Below, one piece after another: positions 1,198 to 19,929 of a stretch of DNA of 64,000 nucleotides. The DNA comes from Escherichia coli. GTDB lineage: Bacteria; Pseudomonadota; Gammaproteobacteria; Enterobacterales; Enterobacteriaceae. The notes under the pieces are model-generated. The model saw nothing but the letters and a program-made list of their open reading frames with translations, was not told the DNA's origin and searched no databases. The stretch lies in NCBI RefSeq assembly GCF_003334765.1, contig NZ_QOWT01000001.1, one strand, 5' to 3'. Numbering within the stretch: the stretch's first letter is position 1; the number at the start of each line of letters is the position of its first letter. The translations under genes were made by a program, and so were the position numbers.

Positions 1198-1503
1198 TCA
1201 GGCGAGTTTTGCCTGATTGATTTGACTAAGTGGCTCATTGACATCGAAAACTTTGGCGACAACTTCCTCAACGCCGAGATTTTTCAGTCGGGCAGTATGT
1301 TTTTCCAGATAGGCAAGGGCGCTTTTTTCATCAGTGAAAAGGTAGATCCCACCGGCTTCGTGGTTCTTTTCACTTTCTGTCCATACCTTCCACAGAAAAC
1401 CAGGTTCCTGATTAATCGACTCAGCAAGTGGTTTAAGCTGCTCAGCCATTGCGTCGCCAAATGGGCCATTAAAAGCAAAATGAAGTTGTAACAAAGTTGC
1501 CAT
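1198..1503 (-). CDS. ydhR: Dimeric alpha/beta-barrel family protein YdhR (101 aa)
   Basis: ORF-track 101 aa frame; length and sequence match recalled K-12 YdhR; synteny between ydhS and the tRNA-Val pair. Confidence 0.85.
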
Positions 1504-1610
1504 AGCGATTCTCCTTCTGATAACGCATACGAAGACAGTGTAAATCTTTTAACGTATTGGATACAGAGAAGAAACAGAGGGAAAAAGGAGAAGACCAGAT
1601 TAAGAAAATC

Positions 1611-1687
1611 TGGTGCGTCCGAGTGGACTCGAACCACCGACCCCCACCATGTCAAGGTGGTGCTCTAACCAACTGAGCTACGGACGC
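1611..1687 (-). tRNA. valW: tRNA-Val (anticodon GAC), 77 nt with encoded CCA
   Basis: RC of 1611-1687 is gcgtccgtagctcagttggttagagcaccaccttgacatggtgggggtcggtggttcgagtccactcggacgcacca: canonical D-loop and T-loop (GGTTCGAGTCC), anticodon GAC. valV/valW assignment by synteny is tentative. Confidence 0.9.
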
Positions 1688-10359: not shown

Positions 10360-10403
10360 TCCATTTCACTCCAGACCCTAACTTCAGCTCCTGCAAAATC
10401 GCA

Positions 10404-10419
10404 AGGTAAACGTTTGCCT
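10404..10419. promoter_or_regulatory. Putative PurR operator (PUR box) in the purR leader
   Basis: aggtaaacgtttgcct; palindromic core AAACGTTT with flanking G/C as in PUR boxes; about 45 nt upstream of the purR start codon. Confidence 0.5.
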
Positions 10420-10657
10420 TTACACACCTTACGCACAACAAAAGTGTTGCGGTACGCCGGAAAAACGACACGGAGCGTCAGGAAGGGGTCAATGGCCAGT
10501 ACGCAAATAGTGTAAGCGTGGAATTTTGGCCGATCTTGACGAAAAGGGGAAGTGGTAAAAACACTTATCATTATAAATGACGGGAGATTTTTTCATCACA
10601 GTGTGTAAAAATGCGTAATATCACTTTTTGTGTGGTAATAAAAAAGGAGAAAACTTG

Positions 10658-10747
10658 ATGAGCACCGACCTTAAATTTTCACTGGTAACAACGATTATCG
10701 TCCTCGGTTTGATCGTAGCCGTGGGTTTGACTGCCGCGCTGCACTGA
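10658..10747 (+). CDS. ynhF: Small membrane protein YnhF (29 aa)
   Basis: Not in the ORF track (too short). atg at 10658 preceded by aaggagaaaactTG RBS; encodes MSTDLKFSLVTTIIVLGLIVAVGLTAALH, a single TM helix, which I recall as K-12 YnhF. Confidence 0.75.
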   Translation: MSTDLKFSLVTTIIVLGLIVAVGLTAALH

Positions 10748-10912
10748 TTTCCTCTCGAGGGAGCGCGTTCTCCCTCGCATCTCCTTCCTGTTTGTTAGCA
10801 AAATGGCAAAAGTGTTTTCTCTTTTTGTTATTTTCATTTTTTTGTGATTGCTGTCATGCTTTCGCCACTTTAATGAATATCGCGTAATGACGCGAAGAGG
10901 TGGAGATAAGGC

Positions 10913-12082
10913 ATGAAAATTAACTATCCGTTGCTGGCGCTGGCGATTGGCGCGTTTGGTATCGGGACAACGGAGTTCTCGCCAATGGGCTTGTTGCCCG
11001 TCATTGCGCGCGGTGTGGATGTCTCGATTCCCGCTGCCGGAATGTTAATCAGTGCCTATGCAGTTGGCGTAATGGTTGGCGCGCCGCTGATGACGCTTCT
11101 ACTTTCTCATCGTGCCCGCCGCAGTGCGTTGATTTTCCTGATGGCAATTTTCACGCTCGGCAACGTACTTTCCGCCATCGCGCCGGATTATATGACCCTG
11201 ATGCTTTCACGCATTTTGACCAGCCTGAATCACGGAGCATTTTTTGGTTTGGGTTCAGTCGTGGCCGCAAGCGTGGTGCCAAAACATAAACAGGCCAGCG
11301 CAGTTGCCACTATGTTTATGGGGTTAACCCTGGCAAATATCGGTGGCGTGCCGGCGGCGACCTGGTTGGGTGAAACCATCGGCTGGCGGATGTCATTTCT
11401 GGCAACGGCGGGGCTGGGAGTGATTTCAATGGTAAGTCTGTTCTTCTCATTACCTAAAGGTGGTGCAGGGGCACGACCTGAAGTGAAAAAAGAGCTGGCG
11501 GTATTAATGCGTCCGCAGGTGCTGTCTGCATTGCTGACGACGGTACTGGGAGCTGGTGCAATGTTTACTCTCTACACCTATATCTCTCCGGTACTGCAAA
11601 GTATTACCCACGCAACACCGGTGTTCGTCACGGCAATGCTGGTGCTGATTGGTGTCGGATTCTCTATCGGTAACTATCTCGGCGGCAAACTGGCAGATCG
11701 TTCAGTTAACGGCACGTTGAAAGGCTTTTTGTTGTTGTTGATGGTGATTATGCTGGCAATCCCGTTTCTGGCCCGCAATGAGTTCGGCGCAGCTATTAGC
11801 ATGGTGGTGTGGGGCGCAGCAACCTTTGCGGTCGTACCGCCGTTACAGATGCGCGTGATGCGTGTCGCCAGTGAAGCGCCAGGTCTGTCTTCATCAGTCA
11901 ATATTGGTGCCTTTAATCTTGGAAATGCGCTGGGAGCAGCTGCTGGTGGTGCGGTAATTTCCGCTGGGCTGGGATACAGCTTTGTGCCGGTGATGGGAGC
12001 GATTGTCGCGGGACTGGCATTATTGCTGGTGTTTATGTCAGCCAGAAAACAACCTGAAACAGTTTGCGTTGCTAACAGCTAA
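10913..12082 (+). CDS. ydhP: MFS transporter YdhP (389 aa)
   Basis: ORF-track 389 aa, 12-TM MFS; synteny between purR and sodB. Confidence 0.9.
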   Translation: MKINYPLLALAIGAFGIGTTEFSPMGLLPVIARGVDVSIPAAGMLISAYAVGVMVGAPLMTLLLSHRARRSALIFLMAIFTLGNVLSAIAPDYMTLMLSRILTSLNHGAFFGLGSVVAASVVPKHKQASAVATMFMGLTLANIGGVPAATWLGETIGWRMSFLATAGLGVISMVSLFFSLPKGGAGARPEVKKELAVLMRPQVLSALLTTVLGAGAMFTLYTYISPVLQSITHATPVFVTAMLVLIGVGFSIGNYLGGKLADRSVNGTLKGFLLLLMVIMLAIPFLARNEFGAAISMVVWGAATFAVVPPLQMRVMRVASEAPGLSSSVNIGAFNLGNALGAAAGGAVISAGLGYSFVPVMGAIVAGLALLLVFMSARKQPETVCVANS

Positions 12083-12898: not shown

Positions 12899-13025
12899 TG
12901 CTACTCTCCTTTATTATTAATTTGCATACGTACAATAGCCTTATTGTGCGTATGGATAGGGTAGCAAATTAAAAGGTGAGACAAAAGATGAACTTACCCT
13001 GTTGCCGTAACAACAGGGTAAAGTT

Positions 13026-13841
13026 TTAGCGAAGTGTTTTTGGGGTCATTACCCGACGAGCGCCAACATAGTGGCGCTGCCAGTAGTCTTCACTGAGAGA
13101 AGTGATTTGAATTTCCTGACCTGTGCGCGGTGACTGAATAAATTTGCCGTTGCCGACATACACGCCGACATGATCGGCTGTGCCGCGTCCCTGAGTACGG
13201 AAAAAGACCAGGTCGCCGTTTTTCAGTTCACTACGTTCGATTGGCGCTGCATCACGCAGGTGATACATTTCATTCGCCGTACGCGGAATACGAATTTTCA
13301 CCAAATCTTTATAAGCGTAATAAACCAGGCCGCTGCAATCAAAACCGGTACGCGGTGAGCTGCCACCCCAACGATATGGCTTACCAATTTGCTGCATCAG
13401 TTTATTCATTGCCACTTTCGTAGCTTTTTGCACCTTCGCTTTGTGCGCGTCGGCAAGAGTTCCTGACGCGGCATTTTTGACTTTCACACAATGCGATTTA
13501 TAGCCCTTACGTTTGGTACACTTTTCGGTAAAGCTGGCTGAGGCCGTTTTATTGACGGCGTGTTTGCTGCGAGTTTTGGCGTTTTTAGAAGCGGTAATGG
13601 AAGATTTTTTAACGGAAGAAGCGGTTTTGCTTTTGGTCGTACTTTTACTGGCGGCTTTTTTCGCTGTTTTCTGGGTCTTTTTGGTGGTTGCCGTGCTTTT
13701 CTTTTTATCTGCTTTTTTGGTGATATGAGTGGTAGCAGAACTCTCCCTGGCTTGCTTTGAAGCATGGGCCATAGGCGTTAAAGGCAGGGTGGTAAAAAGT
13801 AAAGCACAGAGCGTGATCGAAATACGGTTTATCCGCGCCAC
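13026..13841 (-). CDS. mepH: NlpC/P60 peptidoglycan DD-endopeptidase MepH (YdhO), 271 aa, with a Lys/Thr/Ser-rich low-complexity linker
   Basis: ORF-track 271 aa; signal peptide, long K/T/S/A-rich segment, C-terminal NlpC/P60 catalytic region (GFDCSGLVYYAY ... H). Confidence 0.9.
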   Translation of the reverse strand: MARINRISITLCALLFTTLPLTPMAHASKQARESSATTHITKKADKKKSTATTKKTQKTAKKAASKSTTKSKTASSVKKSSITASKNAKTRSKHAVNKTASASFTEKCTKRKGYKSHCVKVKNAASGTLADAHKAKVQKATKVAMNKLMQQIGKPYRWGGSSPRTGFDCSGLVYYAYKDLVKIRIPRTANEMYHLRDAAPIERSELKNGDLVFFRTQGRGTADHVGVYVGNGKFIQSPRTGQEIQITSLSEDYWQRHYVGARRVMTPKTLR

Positions 13842-14174
13842 TGAGCGTCCCTCTGTTAAGGCAGGTCTATCATGCCTGCGTCTGATTTACAAAACTTGAT
13901 GATTCTAATGCATAGAAGAAGAGAAAGTTAATAGCTTTTATTGTTAAAAAATACGTTTCGTTGGCGAGCGCAAAAAAATGCAGCAGTGAAAGCTAAAAAT
14001 GGTTATAAATACGCCAGTTTGCCGGCATCAGAGAAGAAACGAATATTTGAAATGCAACAAATAGAGCAAAGGGATAAAATAGCAAAAGCGTGATGAAAAT
14101 GTTATTTTCCGATGCCGCACTGACCCGCTACAATGTCAGATTACTGCCGTAAAGAAGTTTGAGGAAGCAAGACA

Positions 14175-17500: not shown

Positions 17501-19189
17501 TTCACCTTCGGGTAATAACACGCTATACATGCCACGATCCGGAATGGTGCCGCCGCTGGTAACCGCCAACAATTGAGCGCCAGGTCGGGCGGTCAATATC
17601 CCGGTCTCCCTGTTCCAGACCAGTTTGGGGCGAAAAGCAGAAAAATCGCCAGAGGGATAGCGCCCGGAAAGCATATCCAGCGTGGCGTCAAAAACACGTC
17701 TTGGCAGATCTTTCCACGGTGCGGCACGGCGTACGCGGGAGTACCATTCGTCTACCTGTAATGCATCCATCGCCGCGGCGGCAACGGTTTGCTGCGCAAG
17801 GACGTCGAGAGGATTATGCGGTGGTGTCAGGTTTTCCAGCCTGCCTGCGAACATACACTCTACAATGACTGCGGAATCGACTAAATCACGCCGGGTACGG
17901 GGGAAAAACAGCCCTTTAGATACACCGCCAACCTGATGTCCGGCGCGACCAATGCGTTGTAACCCACTGGCAACAGAAAGCGGCGTTGCCACCTGAATCA
18001 CCAGATCCACCGCGCCCATATCAATCCCCAGTTCAAGACTGGAGGTTGCGACCACGCAGCGTAATTCACCCGATTTCAGCGCCTGTTCGGTGATTGCTCG
18101 TTGTTCTTTAGAGACGGAGCCGTGGTGTGAGCGGGCAATAAAAACGTCGCTACTTTGTACACGGTTAGAGGTTGCGCCGGAGGTCGACTCGAAATGGGCC
18201 GCATCAACGGCGATAGACGGGGAACGCTGTAAGCGTGCGGCGTAAAGCTCATTTAATCGTGCCGTCAGTTTTTCCGCCAGCCCCCGCGAATTAGTAAAGA
18301 CAATGGTCGAGCGATGGCGCAACACTTCATCAAGGATACCCGTTTCAATATATGGCCAGATGGAGCCTTCCCGGCCGGCATGGCTGTCTTCGCCGGTGCC
18401 GCTGGCGACCGATGAGACATCATCCATATTGGCGACCGGTACGACAATTCGTATCTGCGGATGGCGCATTGCGGGCGGGTTGACTACCGTAACCGGGCGA
18501 TCGCCACCAAGAAATGCTGCCACATCGCTGGCTGAGCGCACAGTGGCAGAAAGGCCAATTCGCTGTGCTGAGGTGTGGAGCAGCGCATCGAGCCGCTCCA
18601 GACTTAACGCCAGATGCGCACCACGTTTACTGCCCGCTACCGCGTGGACTTCATCAATAATTACCGTTTCGACGCCGCGTAGCGTTTCGCGCGCGCGGGA
18701 GGTCAGCATCAGATAGAGTGATTCGGGTGTGGTGATCAGAATATCCGGCGGATTACGGGTGAGTTTGCTGCGTTCCTGTGCAGGCGTATCGCCAGTACGG
18801 ATCCCTACGCGAAGATTGACTTCCGTTTCGCCGCGCCGCCGCCGTTCATCGGCAATACCCTTCAACGGGATCTGCAAGTTGCGCTGAACGTCGGTGCCCA
18901 GGGCTTTTATCGGTGAAATATAGAGGATGCGTGAGGTTTTACGCTTATGCGCCTCGCGGGTATCTTCGCCGCCTTCGCGGAAGAGCCGATCGAGGGCGTA
19001 GAGAAATGCTGCCAGCGTTTTCCCGGAGCCGGTCGGTGCAATCACCAGCGCATGTTCGCTTCGCGCCGCCACATGCCAGGTTTGCGGCTGGACAGCGGTC
19101 GGCTGTTTAAAGGCGCGAAGAAACCAGTCGCGGGTCGCCGGTGAAAACACGTCCGGCAGGAGCGATGAAGGGTCTGGATTATCTGCCAT
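14573..19189 (-). CDS. lhr: Lhr, large ATP-dependent DEAD/DEAH-box helicase-related protein (1538 aa)
   Basis: ORF-track 1538 aa; Walker A (PTGSGKT), DEVH box, helicase C motifs in the N-terminal third; length matches K-12 Lhr. Confidence 0.95.
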   Translation of the reverse strand: MADNPDPSSLLPDVFSPATRDWFLRAFKQPTAVQPQTWHVAARSEHALVIAPTGSGKTLAAFLYALDRLFREGGEDTREAHKRKTSRILYISPIKALGTDVQRNLQIPLKGIADERRRRGETEVNLRVGIRTGDTPAQERSKLTRNPPDILITTPESLYLMLTSRARETLRGVETVIIDEVHAVAGSKRGAHLALSLERLDALLHTSAQRIGLSATVRSASDVAAFLGGDRPVTVVNPPAMRHPQIRIVVPVANMDDVSSVASGTGEDSHAGREGSIWPYIETGILDEVLRHRSTIVFTNSRGLAEKLTARLNELYAARLQRSPSIAVDAAHFESTSGATSNRVQSSDVFIARSHHGSVSKEQRAITEQALKSGELRCVVATSSLELGIDMGAVDLVIQVATPLSVASGLQRIGRAGHQVGGVSKGLFFPRTRRDLVDSAVIVECMFAGRLENLTPPHNPLDVLAQQTVAAAAMDALQVDEWYSRVRRAAPWKDLPRRVFDATLDMLSGRYPSGDFSAFRPKLVWNRETGILTARPGAQLLAVTSGGTIPDRGMYSVLLPEGEEKAGSRRVGELDEEMVYESRVNDIITLGATSWRIQQITRDQVIVTPAPGRSARLPFWRGEGNGRPAELGEMIGDFLHLLADGAFFSGTIPPWLAEENTIANIQGLIEEQRNATGIVPGSRHLVLERCRDEIGDWRIILHSPYGRRVHEPWAVAIAGRIHALWGADASVVASDDGIVARIPDTDGKLPDAAIFLFEPEKLLQIVREAVGSSALFAARFRECAARALLMPGRTPGHRTPLWQQRLRASQLLEIAQGYPDFPVILETLRECLQDVYDLPALERLMRRLNGGEIQISDVTTTTPSPFATSLLFGYVAEFMYQSDAPLAERRASVLSLDSELLRNLLGQVDPGELLDPQVIRQVEEELQRLAPGRRAKGEEGLFDLLRELGPMTVEDLAQRHTGSSEEVASYLENLLAVKRIFPAMISGQERLACMDDAARLRDALGVRLPESLPEIYLHRVSYPLRDLFLRYLRAHALVTAEQLAHEFSLGIAIVEEQLQQLREQGLVMNLQQDIWVSDEVFRRLRLRSLQAAREATRPVAATTYARLLLERQGVLPATDGSPALFASTSPGVYEGVDGVMRVIEQLAGVGLPASLWESQILPARVRDYSSEMLDELLATGAVIWSGQKKLGEDDGLVALHLQEYAAESFTPAEADQANRSALQQAIVAVLADGGAWFAQQISQRIRDKIGESVDLSALQEALWALVWQGVITSDIWAPLRALTRSSSNARTSTRRSHRARRGRPVYAQPVSPRVSYNTPNLAGRWSLLQVEPLNDTERMLALAENMLDRYGIISRQAVIAENIPGGFPSMQTLCRSMEDSGRIMRGRFVEGLGGAQFAERLTIDRLRDLATQATQTRHYTPVALSANDPANVWGNLLPWPAHPATLVPTRRAGALVVVSGGKLLLYLAQGGKKMLVWQEKEELLAPEVFHALTTALRREPRLRFTLTEVNDLPVRQTPMFTLLREAGFSSSPQGLDWG

Positions 19190-19281
19190 TAACGCTATTC
19201 CCCGTGAATATCATGCAGGATGCGTGGAATAGCCTCACTATAGATGCCTGAATCATTGCATGTCATCAGGCATCGACTCGA

Positions 19282-19929
19282 TTACACCTCTTCGGCGGCA
19301 GATAGCGGCCAGCCTCCCAGACGTTTCCAGCGGTTGACGATTTCACAAAACAGCACAGCAGTGCGTTCGGTGTCGTACAGCGCGGAGTGCGCCTGGGTGC
19401 TGTCGAAGTCCATGCCAGCGGTCTGGCAAGCCTTTGACAATACGGTTTGTCCGAGTGCCAGCCCGGCCAGTGCAGCAGTGTCAAAAGTGGCGAAAGGGTG
19501 GAACGGGTTACGTTTCAGTGAGGCGCGTTCTGCGGCGGCCATCATAAAGCTGTGATCAAAATTGGCATTGTGCGCCACCATAATGGCGCGGTTACAGCCG
19601 CTCGCTTTAATACCTTTACGTACAACTTTAAAAATTTCGTGCAGCGCCTCGTATTCGCTGACCGCGCCGCGATCGGGATCGTTCGGGTCAATGCCGTTGA
19701 AGGCGAGGGCTTCTGGTTGCAAATTTGCGCCGACAAATGGTTCGACGTGGAAATGTAATGTGGTGTCCGGCATCAGCCAGCCTTGTTCATCCATTTTCAG
19801 GGTGATGGCGGCAATCTCAAGCAGCGCATCGGTTTTGGCGTTAAATCCGGCTGTTTCAACATCGATCACAACAGGATAAAAACCACGAAAACGGTCGCAC
19901 AGACCGGTAAGTTGAGCGTTATCGGACAT
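19282..19929 (-). CDS. rnt: RNase T, DEDDh 3'-5' exoribonuclease (215 aa)
   Basis: ORF-track 215 aa; exonuclease motif [11 protein letters not shown]; immediately upstream of lhr on the same strand. Confidence 0.95.

Follow-up and report, generated by a model that had tools for sequence, protein, structure and literature searches.

The described system closest to the one considered here is MepS (Spr), which belongs to the same enzyme family as MepH, and both proteins are substrates of Prc and NlpI (PMC11211486, PMC8996183). Like the tail of MepH, the N-terminal region of MepS precedes the NlpC/P60 domain and is disordered when free. Its disordered N-terminal 37 residues bind NlpI and fold on binding, the contacts being hydrophobic and provided by L34, V35 and V38 in an amphipathic helix (PMC11211486). 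MepH itself belongs to a set of three “space-maker” endopeptidases that are redundantly essential in Escherichia coli, and its level is set post-transcriptionally by Prc, NlpI and BipP: it is a direct substrate of Prc, NlpI speeds up its degradation (PMC8996183) and BipP modulates it (PMC11789061). For the purified protein DD-endopeptidase activity on 4-3 cross-links was reported (10.1101/2021.02.12.430937), and mepH is individually dispensable, single mutants having no obvious phenotype (PMC11789061). The papers on MepH proteolysis (PMC8996183, PMC11789061) do not mention the tail region. The MepH literature searched does not state by what means this soluble protein reaches its substrate or where it is recognised for degradation; candidates are the tail, a two-cysteine hairpin and a helix, all described below.

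Low-entropy segments beside domains that act on or bind peptidoglycan are found, as in MepH, also in NlpD (Q/P-rich), RlpA (P/T/A-rich) and MepM (acidic). None of these is polycationic, unlike the MepH tail: their maximum net charge per 50 residues is at most +12 versus +17 in MepH, and the lowest entropy over 50 residues is 2.92 bits in NlpD versus 2.44 bits in MepH. NlpD and RlpA are lipoproteins and hence their linkers are true tethers. In composition there is also a likeness to histone H1 and the bacterial H1-like proteins (AlgP, mycobacterial HupB, chlamydial Hc1), which are Lys/Ala/Thr/Pro-rich, cationic, disordered and bound by charge to a polyanion. These bind DNA in the cytoplasm or nucleus and often consist of clear short repeats; MepH differs in that it is exported, no tandem repeat was detected in its tail, and its plausible polyanionic partner is peptidoglycan or lipid and not DNA. 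Finally, some phage endolysins and engineered “Artilysin”-type lysins combine a hydrolase with a cationic peptide promoting association with the anionic envelope. Such peptides are short, often amphipathic and attack the outer membrane from outside, whereas in MepH the tail is long and not amphipathic, and any action it has would take place in the periplasm of the cell that makes it.

The mepH locus and the layout of its product

The DNA analysed here (“the window”) is a stretch of 64,000 nucleotides from E. coli. The features of the mepH gene are the following:

13026..13841, minus strand: mepH (ydhO) coding sequence, 271 aa, GTG start (open reading frame list and DNA match)
13848..13854, minus strand: Shine-Dalgarno-like AGAGGGA, 6 nt upstream of the GTG, read from the sequence
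13761..13841, minus strand: predicted signal peptide, aa 1-27, with n-region MARINR, hydrophobic core and A-H-A/S motif, assigned by inspection
13533..13760, minus strand: polycationic low-complexity tail, aa 28-103, about 76 residues, pI 11.2, charge about +20, predicted to be disordered
13557..13736, minus strand: most extreme low-complexity core of the tail, aa 36-95, 85% K/T/S/A with 18 K
13605..13610, minus strand: A6 run in codons K78-K79; a frameshifted allele of mepH in other assemblies has A7 here
13476..13532, minus strand: predicted beta-hairpin, aa 104-122, with invariant Cys108 and Cys118 in the motif K-C-T-x-R-K-G-x-K-x-x-C
13389..13457, minus strand: conserved helix, aa 129-151, that runs into the catalytic domain and aligns in its C-terminal part with MepS helix alpha1
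13053..13385, minus strand: NlpC/P60 catalytic domain, aa 153-263, with Cys169, His224 and Gln236 (Pfam PF00877)
12993..13022, minus strand: terminator-like hairpin of 13 pairs followed by TTCATCTTTT, directly past the mepH stop, a pattern match from a consensus scan only

The naming of the gene as mepH in the earlier, sequence-only reading is borne out by its DNA and its neighbours. It matches RefSeq loci annotated “peptidoglycan DD-endopeptidase MepH” at 100%, a mepH match is present in 5426 of the 5426 complete E. coli genomes searched, and the order ydhP-sodB-mepH-grxD-lhr is seen in the open reading frame list as well as in annotated loci. By this near-identity and conserved neighbourhood the gene is a member of the MepH (YdhO) orthologue group of the Enterobacteriaceae. 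The protein is thus the known cell-wall endopeptidase of E. coli, and the uncharacterised part of it is the tail.

The catalytic domain is of the NlpC/P60 type (Pfam PF00877, MEROPS C40) with a papain-like alpha+beta fold. The Pfam match covers aa 153-263 and all 105 positions of the model (1-105/105; E=2.3e-36), a second Pfam domain was not found in MepH, and Foldseek ranks solved NlpC/P60 domains highest (target-normalised TM-scores of 0.8-0.9, probability 1.00). Cys169 and His224 align with the catalytic residues of MepS (motifs D-C-S-G and H-V-G), with Gln236 located where MepS has His. All three are invariant in 60 orthologues, and Cys169 and His224 are conserved to at least 90% in a more diverse set of 111 sequences. 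With BLASTP only aa 145-266 of MepH were aligned with MepS (36% identity over the catalytic domain).

The low-complexity segment had been described as extending up to the catalytic domain. This does not hold, as the Pfam match begins only at aa 153 and two conserved elements intervene. The strands of the hairpin (104-109 and 117-122) reach pLDDT values of 75-83 in AlphaFold2, the columns of its motif are invariant or near-invariant in the 60 orthologues, and Cys108 and Cys118 probably form a disulfide. The helix (129-149) is modelled with a pLDDT of about 95, and the mean identity among orthologues is 75% over aa 129-151.

Composition and predicted disorder of the tail

Between aa 28 and 107 (80 residues) K/T/S/A account for 80% of the sequence and 21 K and 2 R face only 1 D and 2 E (net charge +20), which agrees well with the basic, K/T/S/A-rich segment of about 80 residues that had been noticed earlier; the peptide quoted then corresponds to aa 42-93 of the mepH translation. 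The range given for it, 13026-13841, is that of the entire gene. The tail does lie within this range, but it occupies only about 13533-13760. Windows of 20 residues in the tail contain up to 95% K/T/S/A, the sequence entropy is 2.0-2.5 bits per window of 20-50 residues, and the chance of finding at least 45 K/T/S/A in 50 residues at p=0.25 is about 4e-22. The whole mature protein is basic as well (pI 10.4, charge about +38), the catalytic domain contributing +8 and aa 104-151 contributing +10.

Also within E. coli this composition is exceptional, as the sequence-only reading had supposed for peptidoglycan hydrolases. No comparable segment was found in the 17 other peptidoglycan enzymes compared by composition (the other seven endopeptidases, two NlpC/P60 paralogues and eight further enzymes). 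A sample of 307 kb of E. coli DNA contained 699 stop-to-stop segments of at least 100 aa, among which mepH ranks first for lysine in a 50-residue window (0.34; next 0.24, median 0.08). Head-to-tail units, as in basic proteins of the AKKP or PAKKA type, were not detected: Tandem Repeats Finder (minimum score 30) gave no DNA tandem repeats.

Structure prediction points to a compositionally biased region that is probably intrinsically disordered over aa 28-103. In the AlphaFold2 model built with 111 diverse sequences the NlpC/P60 domain has a pLDDT of 94-98 but aa 28-103 only 50-60, and in this segment DSSP assigns no secondary structure. A folded domain, which would have contradicted the earlier view of this segment, is thus not predicted, and a sequence or fold match over the tail was not found in the PDB, nor were biophysical data on it in the literature searched. 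Two other approaches do not discriminate. An earlier AlphaFold2 model from 60 close orthologues (mean pLDDT 50.6) is uninformative because the catalytic domain, too, scores only 45-69, and in the charge-hydropathy plot the catalytic domain also falls on the “disordered” side.

Anchoring, conservation and possible roles

From its n-, h- and c-regions and the A-x-A type signal peptidase I site (A25-H26-A27/S28, sequence inspection) MepH is predicted to be a Sec-exported soluble periplasmic protein; A27 is near-invariant (at least 90%) and S28 invariant in the 60 orthologues. A lipobox ([LVI][ASTVI][GAS]C) was not found by inspection at the end of the signal peptide. A lipoprotein like MepS or NlpC was considered and rejected, since the sole cysteine of the signal peptide is C12 in I-T-L-C, where leucine at -1 is disallowed; the hydrophobic stretch before C12 comprises only 5 residues. 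Given the predicted cleavage and the missing lipobox, aa 28-103 would be a free N-terminal tail and not a linker between two fixed points, so that the label “tether” used in the earlier reading has to be given up. In MepS the corresponding segment is lipid-anchored, only about 37 residues long and poor in lysine (maximum 0.08 per 50 residues versus 0.34 in MepH) and includes hydrophobic residues that become helical on NlpI, whereas the MepH tail of about 76 residues is near-devoid of hydrophobics, charged to about +20 and free at its N-terminus.

In 60 Enterobacteriaceae orthologues the tail comprises 63-95 residues with a net charge of +16 to +23, K+R make up 24-33%, D+E at most 5% and hydrophobic residues 6% (median), and orthologues uniformly lacking the segment were not seen. 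The identity in the same set is 36% in the tail and 91% in the catalytic domain. Evolution thus preserves the bulk properties of the tail (length, charge, polarity) and not its sequence. Long basic tails of unrelated sequence occur also in distant homologues (including those from Dickeya, Affinibrenneria and Rouxiella), with 100-230 residues before the catalytic motif and 16-24% K+R; one distant NlpC/P60 protein (P0222) has a lysine-rich tail of the AKKP type. Replacements of lysine by acidic residues amount to 9.9% in the tail versus 18% elsewhere in the protein, a weak signal from an unreliable low-complexity alignment.

Our preferred reading, put forward tentatively and with a little less than even confidence, is that the tail acts as an electrostatic sticky arm, which holds the soluble, anchor-less enzyme on the sacculus and/or on anionic membranes. 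After removal of the predicted signal peptide of 27 residues, the segment from S28 to about S103 would remain as a lysine-rich, disordered N-terminal tail of about +20, followed by the two-cysteine hairpin, the helix and then the catalytic domain. This tail may bind non-specifically to the polyanionic sacculus, i.e. to the free carboxylates of the stem peptides, and/or to anionic membrane surfaces; that the sacculus carries a net anionic charge is textbook chemistry. It would substitute for the lipid anchor of the paralogues MepS and NlpC, or for the attachment of MepM, which proceeds via membrane and LysM. Specific contacts with the NlpI-Prc degradation machinery would more likely involve the conserved hairpin, the helix and the C-terminus than the low-complexity tail. 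Untagged MepH was reported to be insoluble (Jeon & Cho, PMC8996183), which fits a sticky polycation without proving it. Studies of the tail, including binding or localisation experiments, were not found in the searchable literature.

The same insolubility, present in spite of the tail, speaks against an intramolecular function as entropic bristle, solubility aid or autoinhibitory arm that, until displaced, keeps the catalytic groove from freely reaching the sacculus. A role as entropic spacer is often proposed for disordered charged tails. Peptidoglycan hydrolases need restraint, and overproduction of endopeptidases is toxic (10.1101/2021.02.12.430937, PMC11789061). In the model, however, aa 28-103 contain no contact elements, and with +8 in the catalytic domain and +10 in aa 104-151 a tail of +20 should be repelled and not docked. 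We therefore regard such a role as very unlikely.

A function of the tail as recognition or initiation element for regulated proteolysis, binding NlpI (or the BipP-controlled NlpI-Prc) and setting the half-life of MepH, is suggested by the degradation of MepH by Prc, which is faster with NlpI (PMC8996183) and modulated by BipP (PMC11789061), and by the precedent of the disordered MepS N-terminus (PMC11211486). Moreover, the alignment of MepH with the MepS model of NCBIfam begins at aa 101 (all NCBIfam models are below their cut-off for MepH), and in Foldseek the MepH model shares more aligned columns with MepS chains bound to NlpI than with apo MepS. But those parts of MepH that align with the N-terminal region of MepS are the hairpin and the helix (aa 101-151) and not aa 28-103, and similarity of the tail to MepS residues 1-37 was not detected by BLASTP. 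The MepS contacts are hydrophobic, and the MepH tail, at about 6% hydrophobic residues, has neither a predicted helix nor an amphipathic motif. A large share of MepH degradation is independent of NlpI (PMC8996183, PMC11789061), and the poor conservation of the tail is unusual for a specific docking motif. A degradation signal in the tail thus appears unlikely.

The low identity of the tail can also be read as absence of a specific function, i.e. as a low-complexity expansion that is tolerated in a dispensable gene, where weak constraint is possible, and that is held rich in A and lysine by slippage-prone mutation and not by selection. Within E. coli a 12-nt unit (4 residues) is commonly polymorphic at a ratio of roughly 60:40 (a rough estimate, as the query had 66 nt and split matches were joined in counting), the 275-aa allele having this single unit duplicated. 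Rare alleles in assembled genomes have in-frame tail deletions of 10-32 residues, which together with the common indel implies that the exact length of the tail is not critical, and frameshift alleles arise at A6 runs. Neutral drift, however, would be expected to let in acidic or hydrophobic residues or to lose the segment. Instead, charge (+16 to +23) and length (63-95 residues) are held across genera despite heavy sequence turnover, basic tails persist with unrelated sequences in homologues from Pectobacteriaceae and Yersiniaceae, and tandem repeats are not detectable in the DNA. To this explanation we give only a small chance.

The electrostatic arm can be extended to a more general and somewhat doubtful proposal, namely that the tail is a charge-encoded “soft anchor” in which only length and positive charge matter, that it localises an otherwise anchor-less endopeptidase to the anionic sacculus or membrane and so tunes its activity and turnover, and that such tails arose repeatedly in periplasmic NlpC/P60 hydrolases. 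If true, this would represent a third solution beside lipid anchors and LysM, SH3b or SPOR domains.

Overlapping reading frames and frameshifted alleles

Three further open reading frames overlap the tail region:

13484..13765, minus strand: overlapping open reading frame of 93 aa in sense frame +1, rich in K/R/P, a by-product and no gene
13513-13728, plus strand: antisense open reading frame, F/L/V-rich, a by-product
13560-13760, plus strand: second antisense open reading frame, F/L/V-rich, a by-product

They had been called spurious and attributed to biased codon usage. As by-products all three do exist, but codon usage is not their cause, since synonymous-codon shuffles reproduce them. The 97-codon stop-free span of the sense +1 frame was equalled or surpassed in 26% of the shuffles and the antisense spans were reached in 10-84%. 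The open alternative frames are therefore due to the amino-acid composition. The sense strand of the tail region consists of 45% A, 29% C, 13% G and 12% T, so that its complement is poor in A and in stops.

That one of the three represents a real gene could be argued from their length (66-93 aa) and from the presence of the sense +1 frame in protein databases as N-terminus of called proteins (P0030, P0124). This reading has practically no chance of being correct. Stop-free spans of the observed size occur in 6-84% of the synonymous-codon shuffles of MepH, the base composition accounts for the open frames, and the database proteins with the +1 frame originate from A6 to A7 frameshift alleles or from an assembly with broken neighbouring genes. 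Indeed, the +1 frame is called as protein only in frameshifted alleles; the A6 versus A7 difference follows from aligning the window with the loci L014, L016 and L017.

Sliding of ribosomes on the lysine codons and programmed frameshifting were rejected as well: the longest A run is 6, the two AAG codons that follow AAA stand in the contexts T-AAA-AAG and C-AAA-AAG and not in A-AAA-AAG, and the -1 frame is shut by stops at codons 45, 65, 77 and 85. A “double frameshift” protein (P0013) was considered as a sign of a tolerated alternative frame; it is probably a sequencing error, with grxD and lhr also fragmented there. For annotation the locus is a warning: its A/C-rich coding strand opens three frames, its A6 runs yield frameshift alleles, and gene callers turn these alleles into spurious “exported hydrolase” proteins that start in the wrong frame.

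The mepH gene and the anatomy of its product

The features of the mepH (ydhO) gene and of the hairpin discussed below are as follows:

13026-13841, minus strand: mepH, GTG start, 271 residues encoded
6 nt upstream of the GTG start, minus strand: Shine-Dalgarno-like AGAGGGA, read from the sequence
13022-12993, minus strand: terminator-like hairpin of 13 pairs after the stop codon (pattern match)
13476-13532, minus strand: predicted beta-hairpin of the protein (aa 104-122), K-C-T-x-R-K-G-x-K-x-x-C

The surrounding 1.1 kb is matched in all complete E. coli genomes of the collection (5,426 of 5,426); several are 100% identical over it, and their annotation reads “peptidoglycan DD-endopeptidase MepH”. 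The neighbouring genes (a ydhP-type MFS gene, sodB, grxD and lhr) form the same set in another E. coli genome. NlpC/P60 is the sole Pfam domain (aa 153-263, E=2.3e-36), and MepH shares 36% identity with its paralogue MepS over aa 145-266. Cys169 and His224 align onto the catalytic residues of MepS, whereas the third position of the triad is occupied by Gln236 (13134-13136, minus strand) instead of histidine. This glutamine is invariant among 60 MepH orthologues. For the whole protein every NCBIfam model stays below its curated cut-off; the best one, the MepS equivalog NF008096, scores 86 bits where 186 are required and aligns from aa 101.

By inspection, the signal peptide has MARINR as its basic n-region, followed by a hydrophobic core and the cleavage site A25-H26-A27/S28, with A27 and S28 conserved in the orthologues. 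It has no lipobox, and its sole cysteine (C12) is found in I-T-L-C. Since an A-H-A/S site is present and a lipobox is missing, MepH appears to be a soluble exported protein with a tail (aa 28-103) that is free at its N-terminus. The sequence-only reading had called this segment a tether between signal peptide and catalytic domain, but after the predicted cleavage there is no anchor to which it could be tethered. It does start behind the signal peptide, but a hairpin and a conserved helix (aa 129-151) separate it from the Pfam domain.

Two AlphaFold2 runs were performed. The first, with 60 close orthologues, was poor throughout (mean pLDDT 50.6) and hence uninformative; the second, for which 111 sequences were used and distant homologues were included, told the regions of the protein apart.

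Regions of MepH in the second AlphaFold2 run
aa 28-103: pLDDT 50-60, no predicted structure
aa 104-109 and 117-122: pLDDT 75-83, beta-hairpin
aa 129-149: pLDDT ~95, helix
Catalytic domain: pLDDT 94-98, folded

Thus the structure prediction, which could have refuted the sequence-only reading by a fold here, revealed no folded domain in the tail. Neither sequence search nor fold search found a solved structure that covers the part N-terminal of about aa 130. No discrimination came from a charge-hydropathy plot, which placed the catalytic domain on the “disordered” side too. We assign the segment with high confidence as a disordered basic tail of MepH. In the hairpin Cys108 and Cys118 are invariant in the 60 Enterobacteriaceae orthologues. 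If its register is symmetric they would be cross-strand partners, and a disulfide that staples the hairpin is plausible. The homologues of Dickeya and Affinibrenneria lack the two-cysteine motif.

Composition and conservation of the basic tail

The low-complexity K/T/S/A segment described from sequence is real, and the peptide quoted at that time corresponds to aa 42-93 of the translation. The coordinates then assigned to it (13026-13841) are those of the whole gene, within which the tail proper occupies approximately 13533-13760. Of the 80 residues at positions 28-107, 80% are K/T/S/A; they comprise 21 Lys, 2 Arg, 1 Asp and 2 Glu, for a net charge of +20. The core (aa 36-95) reaches 85%, and in windows of 20 residues the K/T/S/A share rises to as much as 95%, with 6-8 residues basic and none acidic. 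Mature MepH has a pI of 10.4 and a charge of ~+38. At 25% background, the binomial probability of at least 45 K/T/S/A in a 50-residue window is near 4e-22. In an empirical control with 699 stop-to-stop segments, each 100 aa or longer, taken from the window and 243 kb of E. coli K-12, MepH has the highest lysine content in any 50-aa window (0.34), followed by the IF3 gene (0.24; median 0.08).

Such a tail had been claimed to be unusual among E. coli peptidoglycan hydrolases. We compared the best 50-aa window of MepH with those of 17 further E. coli K-12 proteins, namely the other seven endopeptidases (MepS, MepM, MepK, MepA, PBP4, PBP7, AmpH), the NlpC/P60 paralogues NlpC and YafL, and MltD, DpaA, LdtD, NlpD, DacA, RlpA, EnvC and YebB.

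Best 50-aa windows of MepH and 17 other E. coli K-12 proteins
Lysine fraction: MepH 0.34; others at most 0.16
K/T/S/A fraction: MepH 0.90; others at most 0.58
Net charge: MepH +17; others at most +12
Lowest entropy (bits): MepH 2.44; others 2.92 (NlpD)

Within this sample the claim is supported, as none of the 17 has a polycationic low-complexity segment. In contrast with the MepH tail, the low-complexity segments of NlpD (Gln/Pro) and RlpA (Pro/Thr/Ala) are not polycationic, and that of MepM is acidic. The N-terminal region of YafL (yafL, 18713-19462 of locus L003) is basic too (+9 in 50 aa), but is Arg-, Gln- and Asn-rich and, unlike that of MepH, not of low-complexity K/T/S/A type. “AARQR...NR” regions resembling that of YafL recur in distant homologues.

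Close homologues (257-290 aa) are found in Shigella, E. albertii, Citrobacter, Salmonella, Kosakonia, Yokenella, Enterobacter, Leclercia, Scandinavium, Trabulsiella, Franconibacter and Pseudescherichia, and every one carries the tail. Among 60 aligned orthologues its length is 63-95 aa (median 79) and none lacks it. Mean pairwise identity in this alignment is 0.77 for the signal peptide, 0.36 for the tail, 0.65 for the hairpin, 0.75 for the helix and 0.91 for the catalytic domain. Over the same 60 sequences the tail maintains 24-33% K+R, 1-5% D+E, a net charge of +16 to +23 (median +20) and a median of 6% hydrophobic residues; its pooled composition is K 22%, T 19%, S 18%, A 14%, R 5.5%, E 1.8% and D 1.2%. 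Bulk properties that are kept while the sequence drifts are the pattern expected of a functional disordered region, and a tail without any function appears unlikely to us. Lys-to-acidic replacements (9.9% in the tail vs 18% elsewhere in MepH) give a weak signal.

Distant homologues, 45-60% identical overall (including Dickeya zeae, Affinibrenneria salicis and Rouxiella), have long basic tails of unrelated sequence with 100-230 aa before the catalytic motif and 16-24% K+R; most of them miss the cysteine pair. The distant NlpC/P60 protein P0222 has a lysine-rich tail of AKKP/AKKS repeats. These differently built tails in P0222 and other distant NlpC/P60 proteins give hints of a repeated origin of polycationic tails.

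Alleles and overlapping reading frames

The window has one copy of a 12-nt unit (T-Q-K-A / S-Q-K-T) at ~13665-13677, the 275-aa allele (locus L001, 1627-2454) has two, and this indel distinguishes the 271-aa from the 275-aa form. By rough estimate ~60% of the 5,426 complete genomes are window-like and ~40% longer or more divergent. Rare alleles show in-frame deletions of 10-32 tail residues, so the exact length of the tail is not critical. Three ORFs overlap the tail:

13484-13765, minus strand: overlapping ORF
13513-13728, plus strand: overlapping ORF
13560-13760, plus strand: overlapping ORF

They had been considered spurious and ascribed to biased codon usage. By-products they are, but the cause is the amino acid sequence and not the codon choice. 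The coding strand of the core contains 45% A, 29% C, 13% G and 12% T, hence the sense strand is T-poor, its complement A-poor, and both are devoid of stop codons. When synonymous codons were exchanged among positions coding for one and the same residue, the observed stop-free spans were equalled or exceeded in 6-84% of the shuffles, depending on the frame; with codons redrawn from the usage of neighbouring lhr this was the case in 21-89% of the trials. There is no sign of overlapping genes.

The presence of the sense +1 ORF in protein databases has trivial reasons. The database protein P0030, with entries in 39 blocks of the collection, derives from alleles in which the A6 run at 13605-13610 (codons K78-K79) has become A7; these alleles are otherwise identical to the window (loci L014, L016, L017) and are found in many public assemblies. 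Gene callers start their product at an alternative-frame ATG, resulting in a 246-aa “exported hydrolase” without signal peptide. P0013 (locus L018, GCA_900448615.1, 1201-2028) is a “double frameshift”, in which two indels at A runs compensate each other, and reads 47 tail codons in an alternative K/R/P-rich frame. It probably reflects homopolymer sequencing error; grxD and lhr are also fragmented in this assembly.

Possible role of the tail

Both mepH and its product are already known, as is the regulation of MepH by proteolysis. Purified MepH preferentially cleaves 4-3 cross-links (10.1101/2021.02.12.430937). It is degraded by Prc, and NlpI accelerates this degradation, which yet occurs also without NlpI; untagged MepH was insoluble (PMC8996183). 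BipP inhibits the NlpI-dependent route, and at low endopeptidase activity MepH levels increase after transcription (PMC11789061). Neither of these two MepH-focused papers discusses an N-terminal, disordered or linker region. Among the papers we could search, none deals with a lysine-rich tail in an NlpC/P60 enzyme, and none addresses the function of the MepH tail or the two-cysteine hairpin. As a sequence feature the tail is visible in any database entry and represents no new kind of system.

MepH combines a free polycationic, predicted disordered tail with the lack of both lipid anchor and wall-binding domain. The tail may bind the anionic sacculus and/or anionic lipid surfaces non-specifically by charge, which would raise the local enzyme concentration on the substrate. 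This electrostatic anchoring is proposed tentatively, at slightly below even chances (moderate to low in our grading). MepS binds NlpI by hydrophobic contacts of its disordered N-terminal 37 residues, which fold upon binding (PMC11211486), but the MepH tail lacks the hydrophobic residues used in such docking, and its service in proteolytic recognition is improbable. Specific recognition by NlpI-Prc would rather reside in the hairpin, the helix and the C-terminus, because these parts are conserved and correspond to the NlpI-binding part of MepS. An intramolecular role of the tail seems less probable still than proteolytic recognition, and electrostatic anchoring remains our preferred reading.

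Elsewhere in the window, the Rfam family STnc550, an enterobacterial sRNA, is matched over its full length at 10360-10750 (plus strand, 396 bits, E=1e-101), directly upstream of the ydhP-type MFS transporter gene (10913-12082). Two tandem tRNA-Val(GAC) genes are located on the minus strand (1611-1687 and 1692-1768). An Rfam match to the Helicobacter antisense family HPnc0260 (1487-1649, plus strand) overlaps one of them and therefore is probably tRNA-related and not a genuine antisense RNA.
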